A stretch of 64,000 bases of DNA from Patellaria atrata CBS 101060 (taxonomy: Eukaryota). Of the stretch, positions 12,052 to 54,393 are shown in pieces. The translations under genes were made by a program, and so were the position numbers. The notes beneath the pieces were generated by a model. It did no database searches and had not been told where the DNA came from. It saw only the letters and a list, made by a program, of their open reading frames with translations. The stretch covers positions 268,290-332,289 of the forward strand of contig MU006109.1 in the NCBI GenBank assembly GCA_010093705.1. Direction: 5' to 3'. Within the stretch, counting starts at the first letter, position 1. Each line of letters begins with the position of its first letter.

Positions 12052-12200
12052 GGGACCTGTGGCCTAGTGGTGGGAATCCCCCACCACACGGAACAGGACA
12101 AGTCACTAACACGTCCTGGGTTCGATCCTGGGCCTCATCGGGGGGCCCAGCAGACTACCACGTTCCCCTTCGGAGGGCGTGGGAACTGTTTTGATTTTTT
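12052..12200 (+). ncRNA. Putative Pol III ncRNA, unit 1: A/B-box head, four hairpins, oligo-T
   Basis: TTTATAAA 12014-21; A-box TGGCCTAGTGG 12060-70; B-box GGTTCGATCC 12119-28; hairpins incl. a C(UUCG)G loop at 12168-73; T4 and T6 at 12189-12200. Confidence 0.6.
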
Positions 12201-12905
12201 GATTTTTTATTATTCTCCTTTTCTTTCTGCTTTTCCTTTTGCTGCTTAGCAGGTCTTCACTCGATTAGATACATGACAGGCATTCAGCGTAGGGCGCACA
12301 CCTACATATAAGTGTAACACGATGTTGAACCTACTACCGTATGCTCAGGGTACAATTCTATTATTAACTCATCTAATTTACAGAGGATCAACTAGTCAAT
12401 TAGAAAAAAGGGCGGGCGTCATAGATGTTGGGTAGGATTTAGCTCGCCAGTCAGCAATTTTAGAGGATGAGGGAAGGCCCATGGTTCAGGCCTCCATAGA
12501 TATAAACAGCAACAGTGTTGCTTGATCAATAAGACTGTGGAATTAGTAAGGCAAAAATATAAAACTGGAAAAGAAGAAGGATGGTGAATCAAGAGGGTCG
12601 GTCTTTATTCGGAGAATTCGCAGTTGTCCTGAACCATTAGTAATCTAAGTCTGGCCGCTTTTAAATCTATCACAGCTTAAAGAGGAAGAAGGTCAATGAG
12701 AGATTGATAAGTAAGTAGCATTGACAAGTCTAATCAGACTTGTTTCATGTATTGCACTTCCATGTGAGAATTCGCTGACCGTTCGGTGGACATGGCTCCT
12801 CCGTTCTAATTGATAATGAAACAAAGTCCCCAGTGAAAGAACCTCTAGAGTGCGTCCAGCTCAAACTCCGGCGCTATGCTCATAATAATCATGATATTTG
12901 GGCTT

Positions 12906-13989
12906 TTAGCTCATCACGACTTCTTGGACAGCATCTTTTGAAGTACTTCCGTCTGGGATCACGTCTTTGAAAATCCTCTCTTTGACCTCAGCTGCTAGCA
13001 GCCCCGTCCTCTCTTCTGCAGCAATCTTCTTTCCCGCTCTTACAATCTTTTCTAGTTGGGGAGATGCGTGCGTAGCCTGTAGGGCTCCTCTTCTTCTACC
13101 GTCATAATTTGGTCTAGCTTGATTGATTTTTGTAGCTAGGTCCACAATCTGCTTCGTTCCATATTCTCTGTTGGTAAAGAGCGGTGACGAAGAGAGAGTT
13201 TGAACCCAGTATTTGTTCCACAATGATTCCAAGAGTGCAGAATCAAGGGAAGACTTGAAGTGTGACACTTCGAGGGAGTAGTATCGACTGCTGTGTGCGC
13301 CAAAATCTTGCATCTTGTTTGTTGGAATGGTCTGCCATCCCTCAGAGTCAGTAGTTGTGGTTGGCTTATGCTCCGTGGGATATGTTCGGAAAGCTCCAAT
13401 GTCAACCTTACCGGCGGATATGGTGCGGTCCGGATCAATGACCACGGCAACGAATGGGTCTGAATAGGCCTGTTGAGCGCTTTGGGTGTCGACATCTATA
13501 CCGGAGAGCCAGCAACCGTAGCCAGGATGGGAATGATACCATCCTACCGCATTCTCTAATTGATTGTTCTCTCTGGCTAGTCGAAGGAATTCCGTCATGT
13601 ACTCGTTTGCCTCGTCCTGAGCATTCACCCTCGTCTCTGTGCCCTCAACAGGTAATCTGAAAGCATCTGTAACTACAAAGGTATCTTCATGAATTGACCC
13701 CTGCATCAGACCCATAACCTCTAATGAGCCACCAGATCGAGCATGCATGACCATCTTTAAGAGAGCAACTGCGGAGATGCGGATGTGTTTGAAGTAGTTT
13801 GGGTCTTTACGCCATGGTGAGGTATTATTTATCGCTTTCTGAGATTCTGTAGAGTAGTTATAGAGAGCATCACGTGTAGGCTCTACTAATTGGATAGCGT
13901 TCTCGAGCTCTATAAATATTATAAGTCAACATTGTGAGTTGCTGGGTAGAGGTTTAGAATTTACCCCAGCCCTTGAGCGCAGCAGCCAT
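12906..13989 (-). CDS. CSN5: COP9 signalosome subunit 5 (JAMM/MPN+ deneddylase)
   Basis: RISAVALLKMVMHARSGGSLEVMGLM, AFRLPVEGTETRVNAQ, VGWYHSHPGYGCWLSGIDV, LWNKYWVQTLS; short first exon MAAALKGW. Confidence 0.96.
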
Positions 13990-14227
13990 TATATGGAAAT
14001 AAATCCAGGTAAGTAAAGGTAAAGAGCAATTAGGTCTGAAATCTGGAACCTTGGTAGTGAAAAGCTTTGAGATTTCTGCATACGGAGCAACTGGTGCTTG
14101 ATGCCTGGAATTGTTCGATGTCGGGTTAAAGCTACAACACGCCAAGCGCGGGGCGTCAAGCTTCCCGTCTCGAATTCCCCACTCTGAACTTCATTTTCCT
14201 CCTCCTTCATCCTGACCCCTATTCAAA

Positions 14228-14836
14228 ATGTCGTGGCTCACTGAATATAGCGCAGCTATCGATGCCCGTGATGCTCGAGAGAAATCACAGATTAAGTACA
14301 TTAACGCTTATACCGCCTTAGCTGACCGAACAGCTTCACTGAACAATATTCCCCAAGCACCTCCTCCACCATCTCCGCAGCTAGGCTCAAGTAAGGATAC
14401 TCTCAGAACACCGACGAAATCAAAGTCACCTGCTCAGGACACAACGCCACCGGGAGATACAGTAAATCAACTTCGTGCCGAGCTAGCTACTACTCAAAAG
14501 TCGCGCGCAGAACTTCAGAGCCAACTAAAACCCTTGACGGAGCATCTTGAGCAACTGAAGCTCCAAAATACGAAGAACACTCGGCTGATCTCTGCTCTAC
14601 AGCGAGAGAAAGATATCTTGGAGCGCCGGGTTCGTGACCGAGACGATGAGTTGAGAGGTAAAGCCTCCCTTGTCGAAGAAATTCAGGGCGAGATGCTCAC
14701 TTCGGACCTTGAGCGCAACATGGCTGTTCAGAAAGCGGAAAAGCTGGAAGCTGAAAATAGAGAGCTAGTGGAAAGGTGGATGAGACGGATGGAACACGAA
14801 GCAGATAGGATGAATGAGGGGAGTGGGTGGACATAA
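14228..14836 (+). CDS. ATG16: Autophagy protein Atg16 (short fungal form, coiled coil)
   Basis: MSWLTEYSAAIDARDAREK N-terminal helix, coiled coil, C-terminal ENRELVERWMRRMEHEADRMN. Confidence 0.9.
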   Translation: MSWLTEYSAAIDARDAREKSQIKYINAYTALADRTASLNNIPQAPPPPSPQLGSSKDTLRTPTKSKSPAQDTTPPGDTVNQLRAELATTQKSRAELQSQLKPLTEHLEQLKLQNTKNTRLISALQREKDILERRVRDRDDELRGKASLVEEIQGEMLTSDLERNMAVQKAEKLEAENRELVERWMRRMEHEADRMNEGSGWT

Positions 14837-15059
14837 TCGGAGGGTGGGAGCAAAGTGTAAACATACTAACGCAACTCGGATTATAGCCTGATATCAACCA
14901 TTTTGAGGCCTCTGGAAAGGAGATTGAATCCATCTATGAATATAAGGGGAGATTACCCTATCATGCCAGGTGTCCACGCTGTAACCTCTATACCCTGAAG
15001 CGCACTTACGCCAACCATGCAAAGGATCCTGATATAGCATATGGAATACGTCGTGTGCA

Positions 15060-16546
15060 CTACTGCTGGGCGCATTGGGTACCGCCTTCTTCGTCCTCAT
15101 CGTCATCCTCCCACGCGGCGCCTCCTCTCGGGTCATCAGAATCCGCACCCATATCATCTATATCGGCGTCGAACTCATATTCGACCTCATCTATGGTCTC
15201 AGCTGTGATCTCTGGTGCAGGATCTGGTAATATACCCTTAATCGCCTTCATCGTCGCCTCGTCTCTAATCCAGCCGTCCTCGGGGAAGTCGACTTCCACA
15301 ATTAGATATAGATCGCCCTTGGTATCGCTCCGTTTGATCGGCATTCCCTCTCCTTTGACTTTTAGGACCTGGCCTGGCCGTAGAACCTTTCCTTTAGAAT
15401 GGTGGACATTTAGTTGTATGCCTCTACCGTCTAGATGTTTCAAAACGACGCGGTTGAAACCCGTTAAAGCTTCAGCAAGCGTTACATTCAAGGGAGCCAT
15501 GAGATCGGCTCCAACGCGCTTGAAAACCGGATGATCATCCTCCTTTAAGGTAAATACAATATCCCCAGGCTCCTGATCCGGAAGTTGGTCCGCTTCGCCA
15601 GATAGGACCACCTTGTCACCCTCACGGCTTCCCGGAGGTATGTAGACCTCGAGGACCTTGCGTGTTTCAACGACTCTCTGACCTTTGCACTTCTTACAAC
15701 GATCTTTGTCTTTGTACACGGTGCCAACACCTTTGCACGTACCGCATGTGGTAGTCTCCTGAGTGACGAGACCAGGTGCTATTGAGCGAAGGCCGGTTGT
15801 AGTACCTATTAGGCACGAGCAATGTTAGCTCATTACGAGATATATGATAACCCGTCATGCAGAAGCGCATTTCCCCACCATGTGGCTTACCTTGCCCTTT
15901 ACACACCCCACAAGTATGTGGTTTCGCCTTTTCCTTTCCTCCACTGCCCTTGCAAATTGTACAAACCACGTTCTTCGTACTAGCAAATCTTGTTGTCTTT
16001 CCCTTATACAACTCTTCAAGGGTAACCTCGTACTCTTGCTCCTCATTCTTGCCCCTTCTCGGGACCTTCCTCCCCCCACCCATTCCTCCAGGCATTCCTC
16101 CCATACCCGGCATGCCTCCGCCCATTCCCATTCCGAACATCTGCTGTAGTATATCATCCAGGTCCACACCTTCACCAGGCATGCCGCCGGGTCTCGATCC
16201 GTCGAAGGCAGACATCCCATGTCGGTCGTAGACCTCGCGTTTATCGTCATCATAAAGAATCTCATACGCTTGAGAGACAGCTTTGAAACGTATTTCAGCG
16301 GTGGCACGTTCAGTCTCGGGGACCTTGTCTGGGTGGGAGGAGAGAGCGGCTTTGTGGTAGGCTTTCTTGATCTCAGCCTTGGAGGCGGAACGTGGGAGGG
16401 AGAGAATATCTGTCAAACAGTCTCGTTAGGTGCCTTGAAATATGATTGATATTGACTTAACGCACCGTAAAGATCTATTTCTTCTGCCACTATCGAGTTT
16501 GTGTTAGCAGAGAACTCCGCATAGATATGCGACATGTGCACTTACT
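15060..16546 (-). CDS. Type I DnaJ/Hsp40 (Ydj1/Xdj1-like) with CaaX box
   Basis: J-domain with HPD, G/M-rich linker, CxxCxGxG repeats, C-terminal CAQQ; three introns, the first splitting the ATG. Confidence 0.93.
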
Positions 16547-16790
16547 GATGGGCTGAGAGCCTTGCTTTCCTGATTTTCTTCGGACTGGGTTGCATGCGAG
16601 AGCAAAGAAGTATGAATGAAATATTTACATGAAGGGAAAAGTTTCAGGTAGGCCTTGTGTGACTGTTATTTGTTTATGTAACAAGAGCGCTCGAAGTTAG
16701 AAACTTCAATCGCGGATGTCATCGCGGTACAGGGAGCTTCATATACCTAAACCGCAATAATCTGAAGTTCACGAGCTCGGGCATAAGTGA

Positions 16791-18844
<2,054 letters not shown>

Positions 18845-19330
18845 GCACGAGATTTAAGAATATCCGGTATTTTCCTTATGAGGGGGAAGTTATTGTATTA
18901 CATATGTAATGTATATACGCTGTATGACTCTGTTCATCACTACCTCAATGAACCTAAGTACTAAGATACCTTCCCCTTTCTCCACCTATTAGAATTAACA
19001 CATCATACATACGTAAGTTGATTCAAAGTTACGGCTAAGTAGACTATCATACTAAGGAATGTAGGGGATGCTAAGATAAAAGTGGGATAATGATGTGATG
19101 TCGTTGTTCACCTTTCTAACACACTCGAGCTTTATATTGAGCGTCATTTTTGACACTTTTCAAGAGCACAGAGGATAACCCCTTGAAGATTTAAATTCCC
19201 CAACATCTCCTCGCTGTCCGTTACCCCCCCCAACGCGCCCAAAGACCCCTTTCTCCACGCACAATCTTTCACTTAGCACTCGTTTGCTCACCAAAAAGCA
19301 ACCACATAACCCATCCATGTCCACAACGCA

Positions 19331-19623
19331 GCAACAACGGACAACTAGCCTAGCGGTAAGATCAAAGCATAATGCTGCCTGGATAAGGCTCTAGGGTCGA
19401 TTCCCCGTTGTTGCCAGGTACGGAAACAAGACTTTCAAGCCCTCAACGTCAGTTAAGATAACCCTTAGAGACTTACCGTGGAACTAGCCTAGTCGCATAT
19501 ATTCCCGCAAGGGCGGACTAACATATAGGCAAGGACGGCTGACGAAAGGTGCGCGAGACGTGCTAGCAGCGCTGTTAAGCCTCATTGAGCGCGAAAGCTT
19601 AAAGATGTCTAATTTTCTTTTTT
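19331..19623 (+). ncRNA. Putative Pol III ncRNA, unit 2: tRNA-like head, ~190-nt structured trailer, oligo-T
   Basis: A-box TAGCCTAGCGG 19346-56; B-box-like GGGTCGATTCC 19394-404; 10-bp stem 19331-40/19405-14; nested trailer helices; T4/T6 at 19613-23. Confidence 0.6.
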
Positions 19624-19824
19624 CCTTTTTCAGGGAGAGCGGCGAGGTGTTAAAGATGGCTTACTACCTCGTACTCTACGATTAGGCAAGGGGTTACTAT
19701 ACAGACGGAGACTTGCAGTATAATGATACTATCAACTTTGATCTCACGTCAACCTTTGATCGGGTGAATGTAGATTTGAGAGCTAGCATTGTGGTAATAT
19801 TGAAGATTGTGTGATATAAATCGA

Positions 19825-22410
19825 CTACTTCTTCCTTTCCTTCGCCCTCTTTAAACCTCTGATATCCTTCTTTAATCTCGCATCAACCATCTTATACTTT
19901 CCCTTTGTTCCCTTAGGCCTGCCTGAAATACCCCTATTCCCGCCCCTCGCAACGACGACCTTGACCGTCCTCTTCGGCTTCTTCTTCGCAGCTTTAGCCA
20001 TCAGTTTCGCAACGCCATCCGCCTTCTCCCGCTCCGTCATGCCCTCTTCATCTAGCAGCAAGGCGGACTTTTTCTTCAACTTCTCGAGTCTCTGCGCCGC
20101 TTTAAACTTCTTCCTGTCCTTAGCCTCACGCACCTTCTTTATAGGTCGCGCATTTAGAGCCCGGAGTTTTTCTTTGATCGCTGCAGCAGCAGCAGCAGTA
20201 ATGGGACGTTGTGGTTTCGAATGGCGGTTTTCGTCGTCGAGGAACCAGTCGGGAAGACCGTCGACATCGCGGAGGGAGTACTTGTTAAAACCGTCATCGA
20301 GGAGATCGTGTTTAGATTTCTGGCCGGTAGCAATTTGCTGAGCGAGTGTCATAGCTTCGGCAGTGATGATGTCGATATCAGGACGACCATTCTTCATAGG
20401 CTCTGAATCCTTCTCCCATGTCGTTTCGTCCCGTTTGACGACCTCGAAACCACTCTCGTCATCTTCTGAGGAGTCGTCCTCGTGTGTGTCAAGCCGAGGA
20501 CGGAATTCTGTTTTCGATACTTTCTTTAGACGTTCCGGAAGGGTGGTTGACTCGGGTGAATTCGCATTATTTTCAACGTCGATACCGCTATCAGAATCAA
20601 CGTCCCCGTCTAAACCATCTATGCCTTTGAATATGTCCTGATCGAAGAACATTGCTGCTCTTTTGGTGAGACCGTTGGAAACCGTGCCATTATCCTCTAA
20701 TTCGGTAATCAACTTCTTTCCGGGACCCTCTTCTTCGTTTGATGATTCATCGCTTGCGTCATCTTCAACAATGTCCTCATCACTGCTGACCTCCCTATCG
20801 GAGAACCCCACGAATTCTTCATCTTCATGCTCTTTTCGCGCCTTCTTCGCTCGATATTTGGCATCCACTTCTGATTTGCGTTCCTGATACTGCTCATACA
20901 TATTATCTAATTCTCTTTCTAGTAGATCTGCATCCGAATCGCTATCATACTCTTCCTCGCTTGGTTCCTCTTCCTTTTGCTCTTGCACAACTGTATGCAT
21001 TTTTCCTTTTACCACTTTAGATAACACTCCCGCTTTATCGACCGCTTTGAGTTCAAAAATAGCGTCTTCACCCATCGGTCCATTCTGCTCCATACCTATC
21101 TCCATCGGGGTTGTCATGTTCATTTGCATGCGCACAATCTCCTTTTGCTTCCGCTCGTTTTCCTTTCGTCTCTCTTTTTTTTTCTCCTTATTACTCTGAT
21201 CCCGTAAGCGCTGCATTTCTTCCTGTAGTTTCAGCTCTTCATCCATGGACTCAACTTCAGCGACTTCCTCTTCTGCTTCAGCTTCTGCTTCCATTTCCTT
21301 CTTTTTGGAGGGAAAACCGAATACATGTCGAACCTTTAGTCTCCACCTGAGTAGAAGTTTGAAGTCTTTTCTTCCCAACACCTTAAGATCAGCACAGCAA
21401 TCTCGGATTTCTTGCGTTGTCTCTGGTAGCTTGTCAAGTGTGGCGAGCGCGATATCTCCATTCTTGGGCTGTCCGAAACTGAGCTTATTCAAGCTCCCTA
21501 GCATAGCAATAGGATCTGTTGTCTGAATGAACTCGCTTGCAGGTGCTTCTTTGAATTGTGTCCAATCATCCTCCTCATAACCCTGACGTTTTCGTTTCTT
21601 GACTTCTGGGTTGAAAACTTTGGCCTCATTGTTGGGAGTAGGATCTGCTAGTTCTGCAAACACGGATCGAGGGTCAAGGAACTTTGAATCAATCTTCTTA
21701 GGCGCTTTATATCCACGGCAAACCACGAATATCTCGGCTGAGACGTTCCTAGAAGATGGCGGTTTTGTAGCCTCAACCTTCATGAATAGCTGATTGAAAA
21801 CCCATAGTAAGGGATTATAATCCTTCGATCTGAACACCTTTGTGACAAATGTACCGCCAGGCGCTAGAAAATCCGTGGCTAACCGTAACGATTGTAAAAC
21901 CAGCTCTGCTTGAGAGAAAGCATCCTGGACCCAAGCGGTACCAACATTGGGCGCCCCATCATGGAGTACTGTATCCGCTTTCCAAGTCTTCAGATGCTGT
22001 CTGATTGTGGCGCGGCATTTGTCCGTAGTGATATCGCTCTGGAAGGTAATACATCGAGGAATTGGCTTGATAGGTGAAAGATCGACGCCTATAATCAGGC
22101 TGTTCGCAGGCATAACCTCTGCGGCGACTTGACACCATGACTATTCTCATTAGAACAAACTTAGGCTTCTATAAGAGGGAAGAAACATACCCCCGGCGCG
22201 GCGCAAAGGTCTATCAATACCTTGCTCTTTTCCAGAAAGTTGTATTTCTTGTTTAGCTGAATTAATTTGAATGCTGCACGAGCTCTGTAACCCTTCTCTT
22301 TTGCTAACTTGTACCATTTATCGAGACGGCCTTTTCCGTGCTAAGCGACAAATCAGCTACTGTCCTCTGCAGAAAGATATTTCTAAACTCACTTTCTTCT
22401 GGATAGCCAT
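19825..22410 (-). CDS. SPB1: rRNA 2'-O-methyltransferase Spb1 (FtsJ/RrmJ family)
   Basis: MAIQKK | ..[35 protein letters not shown] | [27 protein letters not shown]-terminal [14 protein letters not shown]. Confidence 0.97.
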
Positions 22411-22655
22411 CTTTTGGGGTGTGGTGATAGTGTGTTTCGCTCCGAAATACTAATCCAACTTTTCTCGGTGGAGGAAACATTTCTGCCAAGATTTTGCGGC
22501 TTCCCGCTCACCGCCTTCAGGTCTGATCTTATCAGGCGGTCCGTGTCGGGGCCTATGATGACATAACGAGCCGCGAGACCTCCTGCTCCATCCAAAGGAC
22601 AAAGGTTAGCTATTCCTAGCACTCTTCACTTAATACGCTCAATCTAGCAAGGTAG

Positions 22656-26331: not shown

Positions 26332-26454
26332 GTCGAAATAGAATCGCAGGTCTCGGAGATACGTATTGTTAGTCTCAAATTCTGTTTGGTCGTCGAGGGT
26401 GGGTGGGAGAAATTGTTTAAGAAGGCGGATGGTGAGGTGGAAGAGGAGGATCAT

Positions 26455-26475
26455 GGTGGTGGTGGTGGTGGTGGT
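26455..26475. repeat. (GGT)n microsatellite upstream of RFA3
   Basis: ggtggtggtggtggtggtggt seen directly. Confidence 0.8.
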
Positions 26476-42000: not shown

Positions 42001-42385
42001 CCTTAGCTTCTCGAACATCAGTAAAAAGCTCCAACAAACGAGATATCTACGGTGGAGGAACATTAAACATTGTGAAGGCGAGAATCCCTTACGCTGGTCG
42101 ACTGTCGAACTTGCCGCTGTCTAGCTTCTGTTGTAACAGTGGGGCAGCCCTTTGCATATCTCTCTCGAGCACTAACTTCCTGCATGGGGGACGCGGTGAC
42201 AATATAAAGGGCATTTTCAGCATGATCTCTTGGACGGGGTCTTGTTATCTCCCTCACGGACGCGACACTGGCATTTGAATATAGGGCTCTACATTCGCAT
42301 TCATTGCCTGCTGGAACTAGCCACGCACCCATTGTTCAATCCCTCGCTTGTGCTCTAGACCACAACGAAACTGTAAAACGAGGGC

Positions 42386-42600
42386 AAAAAAAAAAGAGCT
42401 GCTCTTCCTCTCACATCTCTAAAGAAACATCCGAAAATGGCTCTCACACGACTCGCTAATGTCCTGTCCCCGCAATGCTACCCCTGATCTCTATCAAATG
42501 AAAATCCACAACTGAATACAGCGAAAAGGGGTAAGAAACATAGTGTTCAGTTGACACACATTGCTCTCAGCATTCAATTATCCACTTGGGTTACTCGTAT
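42386..42600 (-). ncRNA. Candidate structured RNA with an enclosed pseudoknot (strand uncertain)
   Basis: Three complementary pairs within 42472-42564; on the minus strand TATAAA (42613-18), A-box-like TAACCCAAGTGG (42582-93) and T10 (42386-95); no clear B-box. Confidence 0.35.
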
Positions 42601-42915
42601 AGGGAAAAGCCCTTTATATCTATTAGCGGATAAGTAAACTGTTAAGTAAGTATACTTACTCCTCTTTAGTTATTATAATCTTTCCTAGCGTGTTAAAGCG
42701 CCCGTTAACCTTATGTAATTTTCCCTTGACCTTTTGGAATTCTCTCTTGACCTCGGTAAACCGACCGATTGATTCCATTGCCTTATTAGGTATGTAGTCG
42801 ACCTTCGCGCCCATGGATTTTGTTTGATACGTAATGGTCCTGATTATGATGCGATTATTTCCGGGACTTGCCATCAGACTATTGGATCTGTGCGAGCATC
42901 TCAGATCCAGGATGA

Positions 42916-43529: not shown

Positions 43530-44298
43530 ATTTGTAGTTCAATTACAGCCCACAGGAGTGTCTACCTTAGGTAAGTGCTCCTACTGCGTTTTTAATACAG
43601 TATAAAATGAAGGAGTTGAGTGGAGCTGCTCATGAACTGGAAAAGACCAACAGCCGAACCTCGGCTTCTTAATATCAACTTCACCTCATCATGTGTATAG
43701 TCTCATCTACAAGTAAATGGTATAATAAGTGATAAATCCATCATAAATGACATTTCTTCATTTGTGTATCGTGTAGCTCTTCTCATCATAAATATATCAT
43801 GTCTTTCAACAAGACCGTGATGGAGCCCCATCTGACATATTCCCTCTGAACACAGATCTCTATGGCATACAAGCTAAAAGGCAAGGGTCCTCTAATATGA
43901 GCATATGACAGAGTATAATAGATGAGGTAGTATATCAGGGCAGATCTTTCAAATCCGGGTAGGTGTCTTTTATTTGTTTCGTTGTCTATTCTCACTTCCA
44001 ACGGAGATTTTCATTGAGTTCCCGTACACTTATTGCATATGTGATAAAGTATTCGGTCCTCCAATGAATGTCTTTTTGTTCAATTTAGTAAAAGTAAGGA
44101 CATGAAGTGTAATCAGAGAAAGACTATGAGATATTGGATTGAAAAGTAAGGTACTGTACTAGAGATGGTTCATTGCCAGATTTGTCATGCCGGCTGCGCA
44201 TGATATCTTATCCGTTCTTCGGTGACGGGTCCATCTACAAACAGATCCCACTCCCGCACGTTATCAATTTCAAATCGCTCCCACCCTTTCGATTTCAT

Positions 44299-44530
44299 GG
44301 GCCACCAGTCTAGTGGTAGTACAGCAGTACTTGCTCAAGTCAACCTCCTGCGTTGCAACTGGTACGTGGGTACAACTCCCGGTTGTGGCTGCCTAAGGAT
44401 ACTCATTTGAGTTTAAGGAATTTTGGGACCTGCTAAGTATTCCTGACTTCGCCTCAGCAAAACCCAGTTCGCCTGGTTTTCTGGGAGTATCAAAGAGAGG
44501 CTTCTCTTTTTGTATTTTTTTTTTTTTTTT
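44299..44530 (+). ncRNA. Putative Pol III ncRNA, unit 3: tRNA-like head, multi-helix trailer, T16
   Basis: A-box-like CAGTCTAGTGG 44306-16; T-arm-like GGG-TACAACT-CCC 44368-80; GGCCAC/GTGGCT acceptor-like stem; trailer closed by GATACTC/GAGTATC; terminal hairpin and T16. Confidence 0.55.
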
Positions 44531-44966
44531 GCTGCTATTTTCTCCATTTATGCTCTATCTATTTAATAATGGATAAACATGCAGTCATCTCTATGTTTAA
44601 TGCGAGATGGTGTCTTGCGCAATGGCGAGTGAGTATGGAGCAGAATTACCTTCACTTTGCCCGCTTTTCTTGTGCGATTGAAATACACTACATTGTGTCT
44701 TCAAAGACTGAGCGATACCAAGTAACAAGGATGGTAATACAATGTTCTTTGCGAATGGAAAATCTGGATCAGTACAAAATCATAACCAAAAACAACTCTT
44801 TGATATTTTCCAGAATATTGTTTTCATCAACAGAATTCTTGACTATTAAAGGGTATGAAGTCCACTACTATCATACAAACTAAAGCTCATTGCAAAACTC
44901 AAAAGAACACCATTGTTTTATTAATCCATCACTTAAACGCTATATACATATATCACCAACACCAAC

Positions 44967-45920
44967 ATGGTTGCAACCCACGTGGACGTGAGAGCTGGCC
45001 ATCACAGCAATTCAAGGGGTCTCGGCTTCTGGGAGCGCATATTCTGGAAGAACGATAGGAATGATGTCTGCCAGCGCGACAACATCAACACAATTGACTC
45101 ATCGCCCGCCAACAGCGACAGCCACGTCGACGGGAATGTAGTCAATAAAGAGACCTCTGAACCCGAAATCTGCTCTCCACTCAAAGAGCCGGACATGCCT
45201 ACCCGCGAGCTTCCCCCCCTATACGGCCCCTTGAACAAAGACACCCAAGACTGTCCAATGTGCCAGTGGCCACTCCGGCTCCAAGACCCCACAGGTGACG
45301 ATGCGGCAGTCCAGCTGCCCGGCCCATGCGACCACATCATCTGCTCCCACTGCGTCGGATCGTGGCGGCTCCTCCTCGCCAAGAGCGACGACAGTCTCTC
45401 CACTCCCACCTGCCCCATCTGTCCAGCGAGCAAGGTCATAGCATCGATATTCGTGCCCCCCACAGCGCAAGACTACCAAGTCCACATCGGTCTCTTACTA
45501 GGCGTCCTGGACGACCTGTACGGCGGCCGATTAAACGACCTCGACACGCGGGTCGTAGACCACCCGGAGTCCTTAAGCGTGGTCCACTTCGTCGACGTGT
45601 GGACCACGGCCATCGCGGAGGATATCGAGCAGATACTGTCGGTGCGGGATTTTCTTAACTACATGTATATCGGGTTCAAGCGGCTGGTCTGGCGGTACCA
45701 TCCCGATGATCAGACTCTACTTCCGAAGTACCATGAGTGGTACGAGACGGTTGAGGAACTTTGGCTGCTGCAGGTCGAAGAGGCGGTTGAAGGCTTGAAC
45801 GGGCCTGAGGTCGCGCTTATTGAGATCGCGCGGAGGGTGAGGGAGGCGAAGTGTGCTTCTGAGGATGGCGCGACAGGTGGATCTATAGTGGGTAATCTTC
45901 TTGGGTGGCTAAATGTTTGA
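44967..45920 (+). CDS. C3HC4 RING-finger protein, single exon
   Basis: CPMC...PCDHIICSHC...CPIC in a 317-aa ORF. Confidence 0.75.
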   Translation: MVATHVDVRAGHHSNSRGLGFWERIFWKNDRNDVCQRDNINTIDSSPANSDSHVDGNVVNKETSEPEICSPLKEPDMPTRELPPLYGPLNKDTQDCPMCQWPLRLQDPTGDDAAVQLPGPCDHIICSHCVGSWRLLLAKSDDSLSTPTCPICPASKVIASIFVPPTAQDYQVHIGLLLGVLDDLYGGRLNDLDTRVVDHPESLSVVHFVDVWTTAIAEDIEQILSVRDFLNYMYIGFKRLVWRYHPDDQTLLPKYHEWYETVEELWLLQVEEAVEGLNGPEVALIEIARRVREAKCASEDGATGGSIVGNLLGWLNV

Positions 45921-46059
45921 GTACATATTTCTTGCCCTGTATAGGATAGATGCTGGACGCTTATGTAAATATCGGAATATATATACTGTAACTGAACAAA
46001 CGAGACTGCAAATATTTGACTGGAATTTGTATAATGAGTTACCAATCGAGTTCGAATAC

Positions 46060-49000
46060 TTAGGAACCTGGGATCGCTGACACGGAGTTACGGCTACTTG
46101 GGATAGTGATAAGTAGATAATAAAGAGATTTTTTTGCATCTTCCGCTGATATGTTAATGATAGTGCGGCCAGAGGACAAGACTATTTGAAAGATTAGCAT
46201 TTGCATCATAGGTCCAATACCTTGAATAAGGACGCATTGTCGAACTAAATCTTCTCGTTTCTCAAGTAAGTTCGCTCGAGCTGCGGATTCCCGCTGTGTC
46301 AAACTCGTTAATTGCTATTTTGCGAACGTTGTCTACTTCCTCACCGAGTCGGTTGAACGACAGATCTCCGTCCTCGATTGATTTTTTCAGTCATCGTTCG
46401 CCGTCGTTGTGAATTAACATGAGGCCGTCTATGCGTGGTTGAAATCCGTTAATCGTGGTATCAAGCCATTATTATGCAGAAAACATTGCCTCCTTCAATT
46501 TTCTGAAAAGCTCTGTTTGCATGAGCTTCTCTCTTAGTGTCTCCTGAACGACGAGCAAGACTCCTCTCGCTGCTGTTAGTTCAACGTTATGTATCACGAT
46601 AGCAGCAGCCTATGATCACAAACCGATTAGCTAGAATATAGTAAGAAGTGAAGGGTAAGATATACAACATCTGCTCTATACCATTCACGCTCTCTTTCAC
46701 GACGATCGACTTCCCAGTTTAGACTATTGATAACTCCTAGATAAGTGTTAGCTTCAGCGTATGTAGCTAAAGCATGTTCCAATCACCTTGAGCTTTTTCC
46801 ACGTCTTGAATGCGATTTGAATATCAATCTCAACATCACCAAATTTTGCCATGAAATCTGAGCGAGCATTATCACGCTTCCTCCTGGCTTCTTCGATCTG
46901 TCATGCTTGCTCTTTGTTGCAGGCATCAATGTTTGCTCTTGCATTCCGTACTTGAACATTAGGCTGCTCAAGGTTTGATGCACGATTCTTTTCTGCCCTT
47001 GCGCGCTCGGAACTGAATTTCGACTCCGCATTTGATCTCTGGATATTGTTCTCAGACTTGACCGCTTCTAGCTCGGCCATCGCCCTGATGATCTCTTGTT
47101 CTTTCTTTATTACTTCCTCATGATTTTGATCTATGAGGGAATCGTATTTTACTTGCGCCTCACGACATTGTCTATCATAATCAGCTTATGTCTTTTCGAC
47201 ATCTGCCATCGCTTTTTCAACTTCCTCTTGGATTGCCTTATGACCAATGTCAATAGCACCAATGATCACCTTCTTAATTTGCTCGATGGTTGCTTCCAAT
47301 TTTCAATCTGCAGCTTTGGGATCTTGCTCGGTCTAAACGGATATCATTTCAGCAGTCACCTTGATGTAAAGGCCAGCGGACCAAAGGAGTTCAAAGTTGA
47401 AGTAGAATATTCGATGTGGCATGAATTGAATGTTAATGTCTGCGAGCACGTAGCTGTCAAATATCTCGATCATGCTGCTGAGCTTGAACGCTTGCTGTAG
47501 CAGTGTGAGTTCAACATCCAGTAAAGCCTCTTCGTCTTCTATCTTGTGAGCGGACCGATTTGAAAATTCTTGATCCTGGTTTGGAACCTAAAGCCAATCA
47601 TACTTACCTCCGCATCCATAGAGGCGTACCAGTCATATATCTGAATCTTGTCCTTGAACCGGGTGCCCATTGGATACCATGTGTCGAGGTAGGTGTAACC
47701 AAGACTTGCATAAATATTCACATCCTTGAAACTGATAAGGTCGATGTTCGGAATGACGATTGTATCATCACCGATCTTGGATGCAATGAACGCACCGATT
47801 TGTACGAAGTTGAGAGTGTCAGCTTTAATCTGTATGAGTGATTGTCTTTGGGTTTGCCCCCAAGCAGAAGGGAATGTCATACTTGTCTACGTTTCGATCA
47901 TCCTTCAGAGTTTTAATTGCATCAGCAATTTTGTCTGTAGATATTCCCTCCTGAATACCTAGAACTTTGGCAGCACCTACCCCTTGAACTATTTTAGTAA
48001 GATTTTCATTCAGCTTGCTCTCTCCAAGTTTACTGTTGAAAGCTTTGTCAACCGTCAAAAGCGCTTTGAATCCGAGCGAATTGAGCACTCCTGATGCTAA
48101 GAATACTGGCCATTCGATGCTGACAGAGCCGCCAAGGTCATACAGTCGTACTGCTTTGCTAAGGCTAAGTGGGTCGACGATTGCATCAGCTTTGTTCATG
48201 AGTATACCAAGGCTACCAGTTAGGCCGTCTACCCCAAGCTCCAGGGATACTTTGATGGGTTTCTCCCGGTCTTCTTCCATGCGGATGAAGAGGTCGCCTT
48301 TGAATTTGCAGATTGGAGTTGTATCAGTCAATCTCCACCCAAATTGCTCTCGTGTAGAAGCGTTCTTCTATTTCAATCTGTTGACTAAGTCAGCTTCAAA
48401 CTTGATAATATACACCTGGATATACCTTATAAGAGGGCGGAAGGAAAACTGCCACCTTAAAAACTTTTTTATTCTTCTCAAAGCGAATCTTCTTGTAAGG
48501 ACAATCCTCGAGATTGCTCTTTTTTAGTGCTTTGTTTGGTTCCCCGTCTTCCTGTAACATTGGCACGCGATCCAAAACGGCGCTGAGATAGAACCCTAAA
48601 CACTAAGTCAGCGCACGGCATTTGTAATTGATCGTTGATCGTAACCTTTTGTGACTTGATATCGCCAGATTTCCGGCGGAAGGTATGCCTCGTCCATATT
48701 GGTACCGTAGACGGTAAATTCTGACAGTTGACAATCTAAGAATGACCCTGGCTTAATCGAGTCATCAATTATTGTCCGAAGTGATACGAAAGTACGAACT
48801 TTGCCCGCAGCAACGACTTGCAATCTGCCTTTGGACGAGTAGCCCATCGATAAGGTAATATATGCTTTGAGCTTTTCTTTCGCATCTGTCTTCTGTACGA
48901 TCTCCTCTCCGAATGGGAGAACAAGAGCCCTTTAATCTTTAAGCCCACAAAACATGTCATATCATTGATTGCGATTTCTTGCTTTTGCATTGGAGTCTTG

Positions 49001-50846
49001 TCTGTATTCGTAGCAACTTCATTTGCTGGAACTGCAGCCTTTTCCGCGTTAGGTTTGCCTCTATCATTGCAACATCAGTTATGTCTGAGGATGTTAGAGC
49101 CCTAGGTCCAGTTGGAGTAACTGTCGAACCGGTGGATTTTGGTTTCTGTGTCTCAGTCTTTGATTACGACGCTTTATCCTTGTTGTCTGCGTCCTTCACC
49201 TCACGATCGTCTCTAGCATTATCAACCGGTTTCTCTGTCGATGACTTACCATCTTTGGTGTCGCCTTCTATGGCTTTTTCGGGATTCTTCTCGGAAGCTC
49301 CACCCAAAGCGAACGGGTCAGAAGTATCGTCCTTGCGTCTTTTAGCAATGACAAAATCAAATTCACAGTCCTGGAGTAGATTCTGTCTTTGAGATTGGAA
49401 AGTCTCCGAATTTTCCTGTGATTCGGAGTCCTTCTCTACCCATCCGAATTCCAATAGTCGATTTCCTACCGTCAATCCCCATAGTTCCTCTAAGCATTAG
49501 TCTATCTACAGAAATTCGTAGTACGATGCTGTCGAATTCAAGCTTCTGCATAGGGGTCTGCAACTCATAATTGTGAACAGCCTTCGCCAATTCTTTGATC
49601 TTATCAAATGTGACTTTTTGCATCGTGCCTTCAATCCAGGAAAAGTCCGTTGGTCGTGTTGCCGCAAAAAGCTCACCTTTAAGGAAGATGACAGTGGTAT
49701 TGAATGCCCACGAACCAGGGAACTTACGCCCCCCCCCTTCTTCCAAGGCGGTATTTTGGGTAATCTGCGCCTTAGCTTTATCGAGCTTCACGGTGGAGAC
49801 ATCTGCGGTGACAACAAAGTCGACCAAGGTCAAACTCTCAATACCCAACGGATTGATCCAGATCTCTCCACATCGAAGGACCATGTCGAGGTGTATGTTA
49901 GATGAAGATCACCTCCAGGAAGGTTGAGCTAGACATCTCCATAAATTTAGCTTTGAAAGAACTTTGGTTGTGTTCCTTTCGTCAACAACTTTTGAGGAAA
50001 CTTCCTTAGTGATAAGACCCGTTGGATTATCAAGTGCACCTTTCCTTTGTTGACCAAGGACGAAGAAGGTCCTAGTCCTGGTGGTAATGATCCAGGCACC
50101 TCACTGCTGCTTGGTGGAGGAGCTGTCGGCTGTCGAGAGGATTCGCCCTTCGGGTCTAGTTTCCGGGCAGCTTCTTTCTTCAAGTCGTCGAAAACGATAC
50201 GAACGCTAGCAGAATAAGCCGTAAGCAATGGCAGTCCAGCGGGAGAATAAATAACTAACCCGGTCATGCAGCCAGCAAGAGTGAGATTTTTAAATCTAAG
50301 ACATTCTGTAGAATCCAATGTAAGGCCAAGATGAGCAGAGAGCCGAATAACGATATCGGATTCAGATATAAATGGCTCGAAAATACTCAACGCATTGTCC
50401 AATAGCCCTCCAAGGCGCAAGTCAGTCCGCAGATATAGGCCAGGCTCTTCAGTACCACTTTTCTGGTCATACCATTTAAGACAGCAGTTCTCAAGAGCGA
50501 GTTCTCCCAGTGCTCTATTGTGAAAATCCGGAAAAAAAATAAAATCCACGAGGGCTAGCTTATCAAATATCTGCAACTCCAAAAATAATGGCTCCTCAAC
50601 AACCGGTCCTACACCAAGGAATCATGGATCACAGAAGTACGCTTTCTCTTCATCCGACATCTTGTCACATCCAGCCGGGTATACATTCTTCTGAGCTGTA
50701 GGTTTGATGGGAGGTACAGCTTGTACACGAACCCTCGACTCGGTCGGATCATAGTTACCTAACACACTATTCAATACCTCGTCGAGAGACTTCTGCGAGG
50801 ATGACGAGAGATTGCCCGGAGGTCCTCCTTCTGTAACCTGGGCCAT
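46060..50846 (-). pseudogene. Large (~1400-1500 codon) disrupted gene: beta-rich N-terminal/middle region plus coiled-coil C-terminus; function unknown
   Basis: ORF 50622..50846 continues in frame through a TGA into 49947..50582; further co-directional fragments (49363..49884, 49164..49475, 47825..48331, 47539..47880) need frameshifts; coiled-coil reading around 47300-46790 is interrupted by stops. 3' boundary approximate. Confidence 0.7.
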
Positions 50847-51138
50847 TACGGATGGATCTTAAGGCTTGTATATTGAAAATCTCGCAATTGATTGATTTGA
50901 GGCTCGAAGCTGTTAACATTTAAAATAATATAGAGAATACGAAAAGTGAAGCTACTACGACGGTGGTCATTACGCTCAATGGTTCATAGTCCATTGGCTT
51001 ACTCTTGATCTAGAGAGTGAGAAGTTTCGCGGACGGTTGTTCATTGCTGACAACCAATTGGACGAGTTCTGAACCAAGATCAGCTCTAACATATCTGGTG
51101 CAATATAACTCCACAGATTCATAGTCTCGAAGGAATTC

Positions 51139-51600
51139 TTGTACGGTCAAGCGGATGAGAAAGGAAATCACAGATTCCTCGTATTGCATTACAAGTCTAG
51201 AAATCCTTTTCAGGTATGTCTCGTTTGGTTAGTGACGCAATTGCATTCACTAATGTGCTCCTTTGGCAATATGCAGTACCGTTTTGTCCCGTCAAAGTAT
51301 GTCAAGTTCGGATCTGGTGCACTCGACAAACTTGCCGCCGCTGATTACAGCTCTCCCGCCTTAGATCTGGCCGAGAAAGCAGCGAAGGCAGCAGTTGGTG
51401 ATCCGTTGCATGAGTTCGATTACGCAAAGTAGTTGCTTGGAGAGTTCAAGTGGACTTCTATCAATATGGCTTCCAAAGGCAATTTTGTTGAGATAGTAGG
51501 ACTAACGTACTGACCAACTTGAAATAAACTTGCGGGTTTCATTGTCTGTATTCGAGGGGTAATATAGGTATTGCCCGTCAGATTCCCGCTATATCGCCTC
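51139..51600 (+). pseudogene. Probable decayed gene fragment divergent from the large pseudogene
   Basis: Clean intron GTATGT..CTAAT..CAG (51214..51276) joining protein-like reading; TAG at 51430 then further stops. Confidence 0.3.
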
Positions 51601-52742
51601 AAGCTACTTACCTTAGACATGATCTGGATTAGCTATTACTTGAAGTAGCTAGTTATTCCTATTAATTACGTCACTAGAAAAGAACTTCACCAGCCTTAAT
51701 TATACTACTCAGCACGACCAAACGACCATGATTCTGGATTTTGATCAATTGAATTGCAGCATGCATGGAAGGACGAAAATTGAGCGATTATTTTCGACTT
51801 CTACTGACATAGTGTCTCCTGAGCTATATAGGCAAGCATGGCAACTCTAGAAAGTATGCAGGGGATCGCCAAAGAGCGCTGTAGCCTTCTCCTTCAACTT
51901 CGCATTACCAATAACCTGCATTTTCCAAAATGTCCAAACCAACCTCGCTCTTATCCCAAAAATTATCAGTCATGAAACTATGCTAACCATTTTCAGTATA
52001 GTCTGGCTCTGTACTGAACTGAGAATTCTGCTTCAAGGCGGCTGCTTTTACTTTGAAAGCATCGAGTTTGCTTTTCTCGATGAAGATTTTGCCCTACCCC
52101 TCGGTGCTGTGGCCAGCTTTTGCGGGAGTAGCTTTGACTTATGTCCAGCAGATTGGAGAGAAGATGCAGGACTTTTGGAATTTGGGAAAGCGATGATACC
52201 TTTGGCTTTGATCTCAAAGTTGCATAAGATGTAGTCTGCAGATTTGTCCTTGCCCTTTTCTACCCACTTCACGTTCATATCTTTCCCTTCGAGTGTAGAG
52301 ATGAAGATTTTATCGCCTTTTTCAACAACCACGTTGAATAATCGACGGAGCAATCCTGATCCAACACATGCGTTCTAGATAGAGTGCTCGGCTTGCCCGA
52401 CAAGTGGGTGCAATACCGAGCTCCACTGTGATCCGTTGTCCAGGGTCAAGCCACATGTAGGTGACGAGAGCTGGACGAAACTCTATTGCTCAACATGCAT
52501 GTACTGACTGAACGCGGTATGATGAAAGACTTGTTTACTTCTTTTTACAGATGATTCTATGCAAGCAGGTTGTATACTGATTCTGTTGAAGATATAGAAC
52601 TAATGCACCGCATTTGGAACCTTTCTATACAATCGCTCTCATTGCTCACCACGAGTCAATTGGACAAACCCCCTGCAACTCGGCAGAGCACCCTTCCCCT
52701 CTGTATCATGAACCAGCAACAGAGTTATTAACATTCACACCC

Positions 52743-53156
52743 ATGATCCCTCAAAAAGACCTCAACTTTGTGAACGACTACCAGATTAGAAAGGCTAATG
52801 AATTCTCGCAACTTTGCATCAATTACGGGAACGAATTCCTAGCCAAATACAACGACATCAGAATCCCCCTGAACGGACAAGACGACCTCCTCGGCACTGC
52901 GTCGAATGTCATTATCGGAAAGGGATGGACGGTCGCTGATGCGCGGACCTTGGTTACAGGCCAGAAGAACGCATTCCTGCAGTTGGAAGAGCCTACTGTG
53001 CAACTACTAAGGCCGTTTGACACGCAGTATCAGAAGAAGGCGAGTGACGGTCAATGGAAGGATTTACTGCCTGGTGATTGGTTGCAACAGATGATACAGC
53101 TTGTGAACCATGAGTTCACAAAGTTGGAGGAAGTCATGGTGAATGAGCATGATTAG
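52743..53156 (+). CDS. Small orphan hypothetical protein (~137 aa)
   Basis: Open, protein-like ORF from ATG 52743 inside ORF 52614..53156; no recognisable motif. Confidence 0.4.
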   Translation: MIPQKDLNFVNDYQIRKANEFSQLCINYGNEFLAKYNDIRIPLNGQDDLLGTASNVIIGKGWTVADARTLVTGQKNAFLQLEEPTVQLLRPFDTQYQKKASDGQWKDLLPGDWLQQMIQLVNHEFTKLEEVMVNEHD

Positions 53157-54230
53157 CAAAGAGTTATCAGTTTGTCTCCGCTTTAAAGATAGTTTATCGA
53201 GCTTTTTCAAGTGGCTTCGCGTACCCTAATTGATACACGTCCATCCCATTATTTTACAAAATGCATCCCCTTTTTACCAACTAGTTCATGTATCAATGAT
53301 ATCTTCTCGATCATCTCATGGCAATAGCACTTCAATAGTCGCGTCTCGTCTAAACACCGGTTGAGCTGTTAAATATAGGCATATGTCCCTATTTGAAGCA
53401 CTTCGTGACTTCGTGTAGACGCGAAAGGGTCTATCTATACCCTGGCATTTAGTAGAGCGGAGTTAATAGCGTAGCTTACCTTAAACGCTAGGCACTATAA
53501 TGAATGTATAAAACTATTCTCCTTCTTACAGCACTCCCTAGAGGAGCTCTGGTCAGGTCTATTCCCCCGGAGTCATGGATTGCTTCTTATATTACACGGC
53601 TTGTCGTGATACATCCTTAGAAACAAGGTCAAGTATAAGATTCTGATCGAAAAATAGCGATGTCCAATGACCAATGTGCTAAAAAGGAATGTACATATAT
53701 GGAAATGAGAGGATGCACGTCTATCGAAAAGGGTCGTCTGTGAGAACCGGTTGACTATGCTCACAAAGGAGTAAAATAGTAGTATAGGTAGGATCATATG
53801 ATAACTATCGCCGTTTCCTTTCTAGCGAGTCGATAGAAACTTGACCAAAATCTACGGATCTAATAAGTGCAAGATGCAAAAATGAGTGCTTCTACCTTCG
53901 TACAGAAAATAGAAACGTATAAGGCACATCCAACCACATGTATGACTTAAGTCTGTAAAATGACAGGTTCGTCGAAGGGTTAATGATCTCCTTACCCTTG
54001 CTCCAAGCTCGGCAATAGGCGTTCAAATCAGAGATAGAGTTTAGGATCACAGCGTTGCTATCATCGGTGTTCGAGGAACGGGGAACTTCCAAAAAGGGAA
54101 ACGGGCAGCAACTTCTGGCAAAAACACCCAAGTACGGCGGGAGGGAAGGTAAAACGCAGCGGTGGTATCTCGGTGGGCACAACAGACAATACTTTATATA
54201 GTAGACCTCAAGAGAACAACCTTTAATTTT

Positions 54231-54393
54231 GGCGGCATGGCCGAGTGGTTTACGATTTCCTCTGTCCTATTTTCTTCTGTCAATTCCCTATCGGTCAAAT
54301 TTCTAAGTCTTTAGTTCGAGCCCTGCCTCCGCCAGAATATAAAGTTAAATGCGTTCGCCGGGTTAACTTTCCCTCTTCGGAGGTTTTTTTTTT
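54231..54393 (+). ncRNA. Putative Pol III ncRNA, unit 4: tRNA(Ser/Leu)-like ends, pyrimidine-rich core, two trailer hairpins, T10
   Basis: TTTATATA 54193-200; GGCGGCA + A-box TGGCCGAGTGG 54238-48; B-box AGTTCGAGCC 54313-22; CCGCCA 54329-34; AAAGTTAA/TTAACTTT; CCTC-TTCG-GAGG 54372-83; T10. Confidence 0.62.

Follow-up and report, generated by a model that had tools for sequence, protein, structure and literature searches.

The question raised by this locus is whether four intergenic sites, each displaying the promoter boxes of a tRNA gene without the tRNA itself, represent one class of small-RNA genes, decayed tRNA genes or a mere coincidence of motifs. In a first-pass annotation, the window (the whole stretch of 64,000 nucleotides analysed) was described as carrying four units of a single Pol III-transcribed class, in which tRNA-like heads would be kept as promoters or processing handles and structured trailers would be the functional cargo. 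The analysis presented here partly confirmed this observation and partly supported its interpretation. All four units indeed lie between recognisable genes, units 1 and 3 being located upstream of Pol II genes. The best relatives of one protein encoded in the window are only about 51% identical to it.

Table 1. Position of the features of the four units, numbered from the first letter of the window.
Feature	Position	Strand	Basis
Unit 1, full repeated stretch (upstream region, head, trailer, T runs)	11978..12207	+	comparison with other contigs
Unit 1, TATA element, 43 nt before A-box	12017..12022	+	motif; intact in full-length paralogue
Unit 1, A-box, 0 mismatches	12060..12070	+	consensus scan
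Unit 1, perfect 8-bp hairpin overlapping A-box	12067..12087	+	fold; loop variable, stems invariant among copies
Unit 1, B-box, 1 mismatch	12119..12129	+	consensus scan
Unit 1, trailer: 9-bp hairpin (12128-12150) and 3' hairpin (12151-12188) containing CTTCGG	12128..12188	+	fold
Unit 1, terminator-like T4, T6, T6 cluster	12189..12208	+	sequence
Unit 2, head: A-box (19346-19356) and B-box (19394-19404) enclosed by a perfect 10-bp stem (19331-19340 / 19405-19414)	19331..19414	+	fold and consensus scan
Unit 2, trailer, ~198 nt	19415..19612	+	no excess stability; four C-GNRA-G motifs
Unit 2, T4, T6, T5 cluster	19613..19630	+	sequence
Unit 3, head: acceptor-like pairing of 44299-44305 with 44385-44393 (2-nt bulge); motifs resembling an A-box (44306-44316) and a B-box (44369-44379)	44299..44393	+	pairing read from sequence
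Unit 3, trailer, with terminal hairpin (44491-44512) and T5 and T16 runs (44507-44530)	44394..44530	+	fold and sequence
Unit 4, TATA element, 42 nt before A-box	54196..54201	+	motif
Unit 4, head: A-box (54238-54248) without mismatch and B-box (54313-54323) with one, closed by a 10-bp stem (54226-54235 / 54329-54338); pyrimidine-rich unstructured middle	54226..54338	+	fold and consensus scan
Unit 4, trailer: two small hairpins, the second CCTC-TTCG-GAGG (54372-54383), then T10 and T11 runs (54384-54406)	54339..54406	+	fold and sequence

The four A-box strings quoted in the first-pass annotation were all found on the + strand (Table 1). Each is followed at tRNA-like spacing by a B-box-like motif, the gap from A-box end to B-box start being 48, 37, 52 and 64 nt in units 1 to 4 (35-65 nt had been claimed), and oligo-T runs were found after all four trailers. 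Only four T>=8 runs exist on the + strand of the window, three of them at units 3 and 4. The TATA element reported about 40 nt before the A-box of units 1 and 4 is present in both as a TATAWA motif, which has a chance of 0.0076 per unit of occurring in the 16-nt interval considered. Equally, CTTCGGAGG was recovered in units 1 and 4, and the G(UUCGC)C loop attributed to units 3 and 4 corresponds to GTTCGCC in both. Sequence likeness among the four units was not found beyond the boxes and T runs, in keeping with the statement that their bodies are otherwise unrelated, and the 64-kb window yielded no second copy of any unit. Since they are mutually unrelated in sequence, the four units do not form one family, and the notion of a single class defined by sequence is not supported.

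Taken separately, the motifs are not over-represented in the window (B-box with at most one mismatch, 11 observed versus 12.3 expected; A-box pattern, 8 versus 6.4), whereas their joint occurrence is far above simulation. With a strict consensus, for which the expectation derived from 300 first-order Markov simulations, three A-box/B-box pairs with at most two mismatches in total were observed against 0.20 simulated, and three against 0.013 expected once a run of T>=6 at no more than 300 nt was demanded in addition. A looser consensus, picked post hoc once unit 3 had been seen, retrieved exactly units 1 to 4, both with the T>=6 run within 300 nt (0.093 expected) and without it (0.90 simulated). 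When all 27 T>=6 runs of the two strands were scored, units 1, 2 and 4 presented one to two mismatches (21, 20 and 21 of the 22 box positions kept, respectively) against four to seven in the background, and no other site matched the unit scores. Unit 3 is the weakest, with four mismatches under the strict consensus, at the edge of the background; its T16 run is the longest T run of the window. The four loci are real and not the product of chance.

Ordinary tRNA genes, including intron-containing ones, were rejected as an explanation because cloverleaf scoring fails. At its default score, ARAGORN predicted no tRNA gene in the window, either without introns or with introns of 0-300 nt, as anticipated by the claim that no intact tRNA or cloverleaf is present, and Rfam searches of each unit at E<=10 returned no tRNA and no relevant family. 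Lowering the ARAGORN score gave seven predictions, none at a unit head; one of them starts at 12121, inside unit 1, and includes a 289-nt "intron". No Rfam family was matched in the window at gathering score and a motif scan of the units detected no C/D, H/ACA (3' ACA), U6 or P4-like motifs, which agrees with the earlier failure to match the units to known small RNAs by eye. The boxes and oligo-T runs being kept and the cloverleaf lost, the units are neither ordinary tRNAs nor simply uniformly decayed tRNAs. The sequence supports a tRNA derivation of the units, which retain type-2 Pol III boxes and an oligo-T terminator.

Comparison of units 1 and 2 with the genome's own contigs showed that unit 1 is a dispersed repeat, with at least eight other distinct copies that are 80-95% alike (at least 8-9 other contigs; the same variant at 12052 occurs in 8-9 of them), while unit 2, at >=80% likeness, is a single copy present only in its source contig. 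One other contig spans 11978-12207 with 39 differing letters and 4 gaps, and further contigs cover 12032-12088, 12039-12134, 12045-12141, 12052-12101, 12116-12207 and 12143-12193. Likeness among the copies is lost past 12200/12207, where the T cluster ends, and internal deletions of 87 and 44 nt occur in two contigs. Multiplication of unit 1 has given no fewer than about nine distinct copies, some internally deleted. The head is found in about 8-9 other contigs versus 4-5 for the 3' part, with some contigs running on into a different 3' part. In the upstream direction, likeness reaches 30-75 nt beyond the expected transcription start. No match to the core of unit 1 came out of a metagenome scan.

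The distribution of variants along unit 1 is uneven. The full-length paralogue differs at 12010, 12012, 12014, 12023, 12026, 12030 and 12031 and nowhere in 12015-12022, the TATA element being thus preserved between changed flanks. Among the copies, no variant falls in the A-box block (12058-12075), in the B-box or in either stem of the hairpin overlapping the A-box, while all four positions of the hairpin loop (12076-12079) are variable. Variable sites number 27 in about 176 positions, and the probability that the 29 box-block positions would include none of them is, by our own estimate, about 0.008. Fifteen variants affect positions paired in the MFE structure, nine of which keep pairing through wobble and six of which break it.

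Do these properties make the units SINEs, an alternative already contemplated in the first-pass annotation? The succession of a tRNA-related head bearing Pol III boxes and a body unrelated to it is a SINE-like trait, and the dispersal of unit 1, next to a single-copy unit 2, bears on the same question. On the other hand, none of the four units is bracketed by a direct repeat of at least 7 nt (old, decayed target-site duplications being possible), and none of them has an A-rich or simple-repeat tail, as they end in sense-strand T clusters. In addition, the likeness of unit 1 copies extends upstream of the expected start, into sequence that retroposition of a Pol III transcript would not be expected to carry along. 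For these reasons, the SINE-like side of the units fits poorly.

On balance, the four loci probably correspond to independent, lineage-specific Pol III transcription units, each having arisen from a separate decayed tRNA gene. The tRNA would survive mainly as its internal promoter, that is, the A-box and B-box as TFIIIC sites, with units 2 to 4 apparently keeping also the pairing between head ends. In this model, TFIIIC would bind the two boxes and position TFIIIB some 30 nt before the start site, assisted by the TATA element in units 1 and 4. Pol III would start about 10 nt before the A-box, transcribe the head together with the extension of non-tRNA sequence and stop in the first long T cluster, with predicted oligo-U-ended RNAs of about 150, 290, 215-235 and 165 nt for units 1 to 4. 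The whole transcript, and not a trailer freed from its handle, is the likeliest product. The units would resemble young, fast-evolving small-RNA genes or SINE-like repeats, born and dying. Their sequence architecture is well supported: the motifs, their improbable combination, the lack of a tRNA or Rfam match and the copy status of units 1 and 2 are shown, and transcription, its start and end points and any function are inferred.

It is rather unlikely that the tRNA-like head serves as promoter and RNase P/RNase Z handle and is then cut off to release the trailer as a functional small RNA. Models for such an arrangement are RPR1, SNR52, plant tRNA-snoRNA genes and the tRNA-linked viral miRNAs of MHV68; in yeast RPR1 and SNR52, a non-tRNA leader with A and B boxes drives the downstream RNA and is subsequently removed. 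The cargo of these two genes is recognisable (RNase P RNA and a C/D snoRNA), whereas no known mature RNA was found downstream of the heads studied here, either by Rfam at E<=10 or by snoRNA, U6 and P4 motifs, and a leader gene of the RPR1/SNR52 type with a recognisable mature RNA was rejected. A cleavable head would account for the acceptor-like stems of units 2, 3 and 4 (10, 5+2 and 10 bp), which stop where the discriminator base and RNase Z cut would be expected, and for boxes that are near perfect when the remaining tRNA is lost; yet the head of unit 1 folds as a rod with its B-box paired and no acceptor/T-arm stack. The unit 2 trailer repeats 11 nt of the A-box region exactly (19482-19492) and contains four C-GNRA-G motifs where base-independent odds would give about 0.56, the latter favouring the reading of the trailer as cargo. 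However, unit 1 alone is more stably folded than shuffled sequence (z of -3.5 for the whole unit, -2.9 for the head and -3.0 for the trailer), the trailers of units 2, 3 and 4 showing no excess stability (z of +0.7, -1.3 and -0.8). The description of the trailers as dense in helices applies, therefore, to unit 1 and not to the others, and their designation as structured cargo fails the shuffle test in three of four units. A hairpin directly before a T run is not unusual in the window, those of the units ranking 10, 26 and 81 among 526 T>=4 runs and unit 2 having none. Moreover, among unit 1 copies the head recurs more widely than any other module, including the 3' part, which is the opposite of the pattern of a cargo-defined family. 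The head as handle and the trailer as cargo remain unproven.

Still less likely is that the units are silent relics, meaning untranscribed dead tRNA genes or dead copies of tRNA-derived repeats whose boxes were the best-conserved part from the outset. The missing cloverleaf, the deletion derivatives of the unit 1 family and the degraded boxes of unit 3 would suit this explanation, but uniform decay should hit the 22 box positions as hard as the remaining sequence, and units 1, 2 and 4 have lost only one or two of them with no tRNA match left at E<=10. Besides, the long T clusters, the rarest T runs of the window, lie 60-215 nt downstream instead of at the tRNA's own end, TATA elements occur at matching distance in two units and the boxes are invariant among unit 1 copies.

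A role as TFIIIC-bound boundary or genome-organising sites, kept for chromatin and not for RNA, is very improbable. Yeast "extra TFIIIC"/COC sites are bound by TFIIIC and need only a B-box; the good preservation of the B-boxes and the location of units 1 and 3 upstream of Pol II genes would agree with such a role, but the additional presence of the A-box, TATA and strong T clusters points to transcription. Finally, a chance collection of motifs chosen by eye is scarcely credible and already disfavoured for units 1, 2 and 4, since the ordinary frequency of the single motifs, and a unit 3 that alone could be chance, are outweighed by their joint occurrence, the TATA elements and the repeat status of unit 1.

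If independent Pol III units of tRNA origin are indeed transcribed here, they would add a Dothideomycete case to the few fungal Pol III RNAs beyond tRNA, 5S, U6, SRP and RNase P RNA, and would represent tRNA genes recycled as portable promoters. They could possibly be used as host-native Pol III promoters and terminators for guide-RNA expression, and such units mislead tRNA and repeat annotation. It is conceivable, if doubtful, that this isolated Dothideomycete-like lineage has repeatedly made tRNA genes over into cassettes that serve as promoters of new Pol III small RNAs, the multi-copy unit 1 family being selected for its TATA element, boxes and conserved hairpin. The family would then be a fungal counterpart of rodent 4.5SI and BC1, the latter a tRNA-derived small-RNA gene of the 4.5SI kind, or alternatively of precursors of Pol III milRNAs, and would have a cellular role in, for example, silencing or translation control.

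With one unit belonging to a dispersed repeat family, the four resemble tRNA-derived small-RNA or SINE-like elements of other moulds. AfuSINE2 from Aspergillus fumigatus is reported as a set of eight low-copy, tRNA-related families of 140-493 bp that derive from different tRNAs, have no cloverleaf, are mutually dissimilar and include five that are transcribed (PMC5063351). The likeness to the four units comprises a filamentous ascomycete host, unrelated families of differing tRNA origin, an A/B-box head devoid of cloverleaf with an extended stretch that bears no relation to tRNA, and low copy number (from one copy up to four or more in AfuSINE2, some of which is transcribed). AfuSINE2 boxes are described as degenerate, whereas those studied here are near perfect; its 4-14 bp target-site duplications have no equivalent of 7 nt or more at the present units; one element carries an (ACT)n tail and a 3' end resembling that of a LINE in place of oligo-T clusters; and the unit 1 copies additionally have upstream sequence in common, TATA included.

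Neurospora crassa milR-1 to milR-4 are reported to be transcribed by Pol III and to have TATA-like elements, poly-T and putative A and B boxes (PMC3547838). They share these elements with the units, the TATA element with units 1 and 4, as well as an intergenic location in a filamentous ascomycete, but their transcripts form hairpins, while a markedly stable fold is seen here in unit 1 only. For milR-4, RNase Z is needed to cut the upstream tRNA, a situation likened by the authors to MHV68 (PMC3547838) and the precedent for a cleavable head; the tRNAs concerned, however, are real tRNA-Ala genes, unlike the present heads. The rodent 4.5SI RNA genes are described as tRNA-derived, having internal A and B boxes and requiring an upstream TATA-like box as well (PMC10137851). 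They differ in belonging to a mammalian lineage and in encoding a known stable RNA, the present units being known from their sequence, and they share with units 1 and 4 the combination of internal boxes and an upstream TATA element.

At each of the four intergenic loci (units 1-4), an A-box-type motif, a B-box-type motif, a non-tRNA extension and a T-run cluster follow one another on the + strand, as the first-pass annotation had described. The end of the A-box and the start of the B-box are separated by 48, 37, 52 and 64 nt in units 1 to 4, respectively, and the TATA elements claimed for units 1 and 4 (TATAAA/TATATA) were found 43 nt and 42 nt 5' of the A-box. The ends of the head, that is, the tRNA-like part carrying the two boxes, are paired by closing stems, which measure 10 bp in units 2 and 4 and, by reading, 5+2 bp in unit 3. 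The common + strand has a chance of 1 in 8 and is therefore not significant by itself.

Coordinates (window positions), shuffle-test z scores and flanking genes of the four units; the trailer is the non-tRNA extension up to the T cluster
Unit	Strand	A-box-type motif	B-box-type motif	T-run cluster	Head z	Trailer z	Flanks
1	+	12060	12119	12189-12208	-2.9	-3.0	cupin-domain ORF; CSN5-like gene
2	+	19346	19394	19613-19630	-1.6	+0.7	tRNA-synthetase-like ORF with anticodon-binding domain; Spb1-like methyltransferase
3	+	44306	44369	44507-44530	+0.9	-1.3	thioesterase; weak RING-finger ORF
4	+	54238	54313	54384-54406	-0.5	-0.8	

The significance of this arrangement was evaluated against 300 first-order Markov simulations of the window, using a consensus (TRGCNNAGTGG for the A-box and GGTTCGANNCC for the B-box), with the two boxes 25-90 nt apart and no more than 2 mismatches over both. 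Three A+B pairs were found, corresponding to units 1, 2 and 4, versus a simulated mean of 0.20, and all three had a run of T>=6 within 300 nt, versus a simulated mean of 0.013. A looser consensus, chosen after seeing unit 3 (the A-box may have Y at position 4 and the B-box R at position 6), retrieved exactly the four units, each accompanied by a T run; the simulations gave 0.90 pairs, or 0.093 with a T run. The two strands together have 27 T>=6 runs; when the best A+B pair 5' of every one was scored, units 1, 2 and 4 showed 1-2 mismatches, unit 3 showed 4 and the rest 4-7. Only four runs of T>=8 occur on the + strand in the 64 kb, three of them at units 3 and 4, and two of the four units have a TATAWA at a like distance, the chance per unit being 0.0076 (16-nt interval). 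The single motifs are not enriched (11 B-boxes with at most one mismatch versus 12.3 expected; 8 matches to a loose A-box pattern versus 6.4). The architecture is real and statistically solid, and units 1, 2 and 4 can be regarded, on their motifs, as certainly tRNA-derived Pol III-type arrangements, and unit 3 probably as another.

The units lie between genes, as judged from ORFs, which agrees with their earlier placement, and the neighbouring genes are ordinary in kind. The statement that no intact tRNA is present also held, since ARAGORN reported 0 genes in the window, with or without introns. No Rfam family reached the gathering score in the window, and scans of each unit at E<=10 returned nothing or meaningless low-score matches, the tRNA model never being among them. 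Likewise, a motif scan of the units revealed no C/D-box, H/ACA, U6 or P4-type motif, in line with the lack of known-RNA motifs first noted by eye. On the minus strand, 42375-42450 contains a T10 (A10 at 42386 on the + strand), the longest T run of that strand, preceded by a small hairpin; the locus had no Rfam match. Minus-strand units at this A10 and at the A8 at 50532 were discarded, as the upstream scan found no A/B boxes at either. The best non-self matches of a 946-aa protein of the window are Dothideomycete proteins about 51% identical. Alignable intergenic DNA is therefore not expected in relatives, and matches at only this level make the fungus an isolated Dothideomycete-like lineage.

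The proposal of a single class or family did not survive comparison of the units, which are mutually unrelated in sequence apart from short matches. The shared words previously pointed out do exist: units 1 and 4 have the 9-mer CTTCGGAGG in common, units 3 and 4 the 7-mer GTTCGCC; they would carry little weight, because the units are otherwise unrelated, and the four sequences argue that units 1-4 are not one family. Some internal features of individual units can also be recorded. Unit 2 carries an exact 11-nt repeat, with 19343-19353 in the A-box region recurring at 19482-19492 in its own trailer, 139 nt 3', and a 7-mer at 19306 and 19458 shows a similar spacing. A tandem-copy origin of this unit is unproven: the 11-nt repeat is exact, yet its flanks fail to align. 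The same trailer has four C-GNRA-G motifs in about 90 nt (19506-19597), where about 0.56 would be expected over 288 nt; CCC-GCAA-GGG, the first, is a clean tetraloop hairpin. Unit 4 was considered as an insertion-split tRNA and rejected, since by reading its middle of about 60 nt replaces, and does not just interrupt, the D, anticodon and variable arms.

Contigs of the only two public sequencing runs that contain the stretch (X1 and X2, both of one sample, which probably supplied the DNA for the assembly) were aligned to 11900-19750 at 80% likeness. One contig per run spans this interval without any difference, and many more contig pieces stack solely on 11978/12032-12207. Eight X1 contigs and nine X2 contigs agree on one alternative letter at 12052, so the head occurs in no fewer than eight further, distinct copies; by these contigs, unit 1 is a dispersed repeat. 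Its 3' part is more thinly covered (about 4-5 contigs at 12137-12167). Three short contigs match the head to 12101 and then diverge, the divergent part also having a B-box-like motif. Two contigs have internal deletions of 87 nt (B-box lost) and 44 nt. Similarity among the copies is lost behind 12200/12207. Four contigs resemble one another over the 30 nt before 12054 (agreement 0.88), and by eye they resemble the window there as well; one paralogue aligns from 11978 with the TATA (12015-12022) intact and seven nearby places differing. Unit 2 was matched by the source contig alone and is therefore single copy at 80% likeness. A metagenome scan with the invariant unit 1 core (loop left open) gave 0 matches. 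Elsewhere, a 646-nt X2 contig of depth 4 matches part of the CSN5-like gene (13702-13805) with 18 differences in 104 nt, and could derive from a second organism in the sample or a diverged paralogue.

Within the unit 1 family no variants are listed in the A-box block (12058-12075) or the B-box (12119-12129). Given 27 variable places out of about 176, all of them would miss the 29 box-block places with a probability of about 0.008, an estimate that local alignment may bias. A perfect 8-bp hairpin (12067-12074/12080-12087) has stems without variants, and all four loop places (12076-12079) vary. Fifteen variants fall at MFE-paired places, nine keeping the pair via wobble and six breaking it. A RIP signature was also sought and set aside, as the 6 of 16 C>T/G>A variants in CpA/TpG, by reading of contexts, are uninformative. 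An A-box-like motif (11888-11902) and an 11-mer (11981-11991), located about 172-176 nt 5' of their unit 1 counterparts, may be what is left of an earlier tandem copy; the two stretches align weakly and unconvincingly.

The heads are most likely remnants of different tRNA genes that would have kept the TFIIIC-binding boxes and, in units 2-4, the pairing of their ends. The mechanism best supported by the motifs is a tRNA-type (type 2) Pol III transcription unit, with the upstream TATA presumably assisting units 1 and 4. Transcription would start about 10 nt 5' of the A-box and terminate within the T cluster, yielding RNAs roughly 150 to 290 nt long with an oligo-U end. The earlier suggestion that the trailer is released from the head as functional cargo is not favoured. 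In the unit 1 family, the sole comparable one, the head is the most widely common part and the 3' parts differ. Moreover, the unit 1 head folds as a rod with a paired B-box, without an acceptor/T-arm stack. The trailers, said to be dense in helices, had no excess structure in three of the four units (2, 3 and 4) in the shuffle test. Because of these three observations, the whole transcript is favoured as the putative product. Nor do the units stand out for a hairpin abutting the T run: of the 526 T>=4 runs in the window, theirs take ranks 10, 26 and 81, with no such hairpin in unit 2.

Searches for literature on tRNA-like RNA polymerase III units in Dothideomycetes had no match, and those on tRNA-derived SINE retrotransposons in Dothideomycetes had no such units among the matches listed (titles, abstract starts). 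Unlike the yeast RPR1 and SNR52, the units have no recognisable cargo. They differ from SINEs in having no flanking direct repeat >=7 nt at any of the four and no A-rich tail, and the unit 1 copies are similar upstream too. The rodent 4.5SI genes are reported to need a TATA-like box in addition to their A/B boxes (PMC10137851). Two close precedents come from filamentous ascomycetes. The AfuSINE2 of Aspergillus fumigatus are described as eight low-copy families of 140-493 bp, each from different tRNAs, mutually unrelated and non-cloverleaf, with A/B boxes and a tRNA-unrelated region, five of the eight being transcribed (PMC5063351). The main milRNA loci of Neurospora crassa are reported to be transcribed by Pol III and to have poly-T, TATA-like elements and putative A/B boxes; RNase Z cuts milR-4 out of a tRNA-containing precursor, an arrangement that the authors compare with the MHV68 tRNA-linked miRNAs (PMC3547838). 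The sequence signals of the present units fit those loci, and the units are best filed with the known tRNA-derived Pol III small-RNA or SINE-like units of filamentous fungi.
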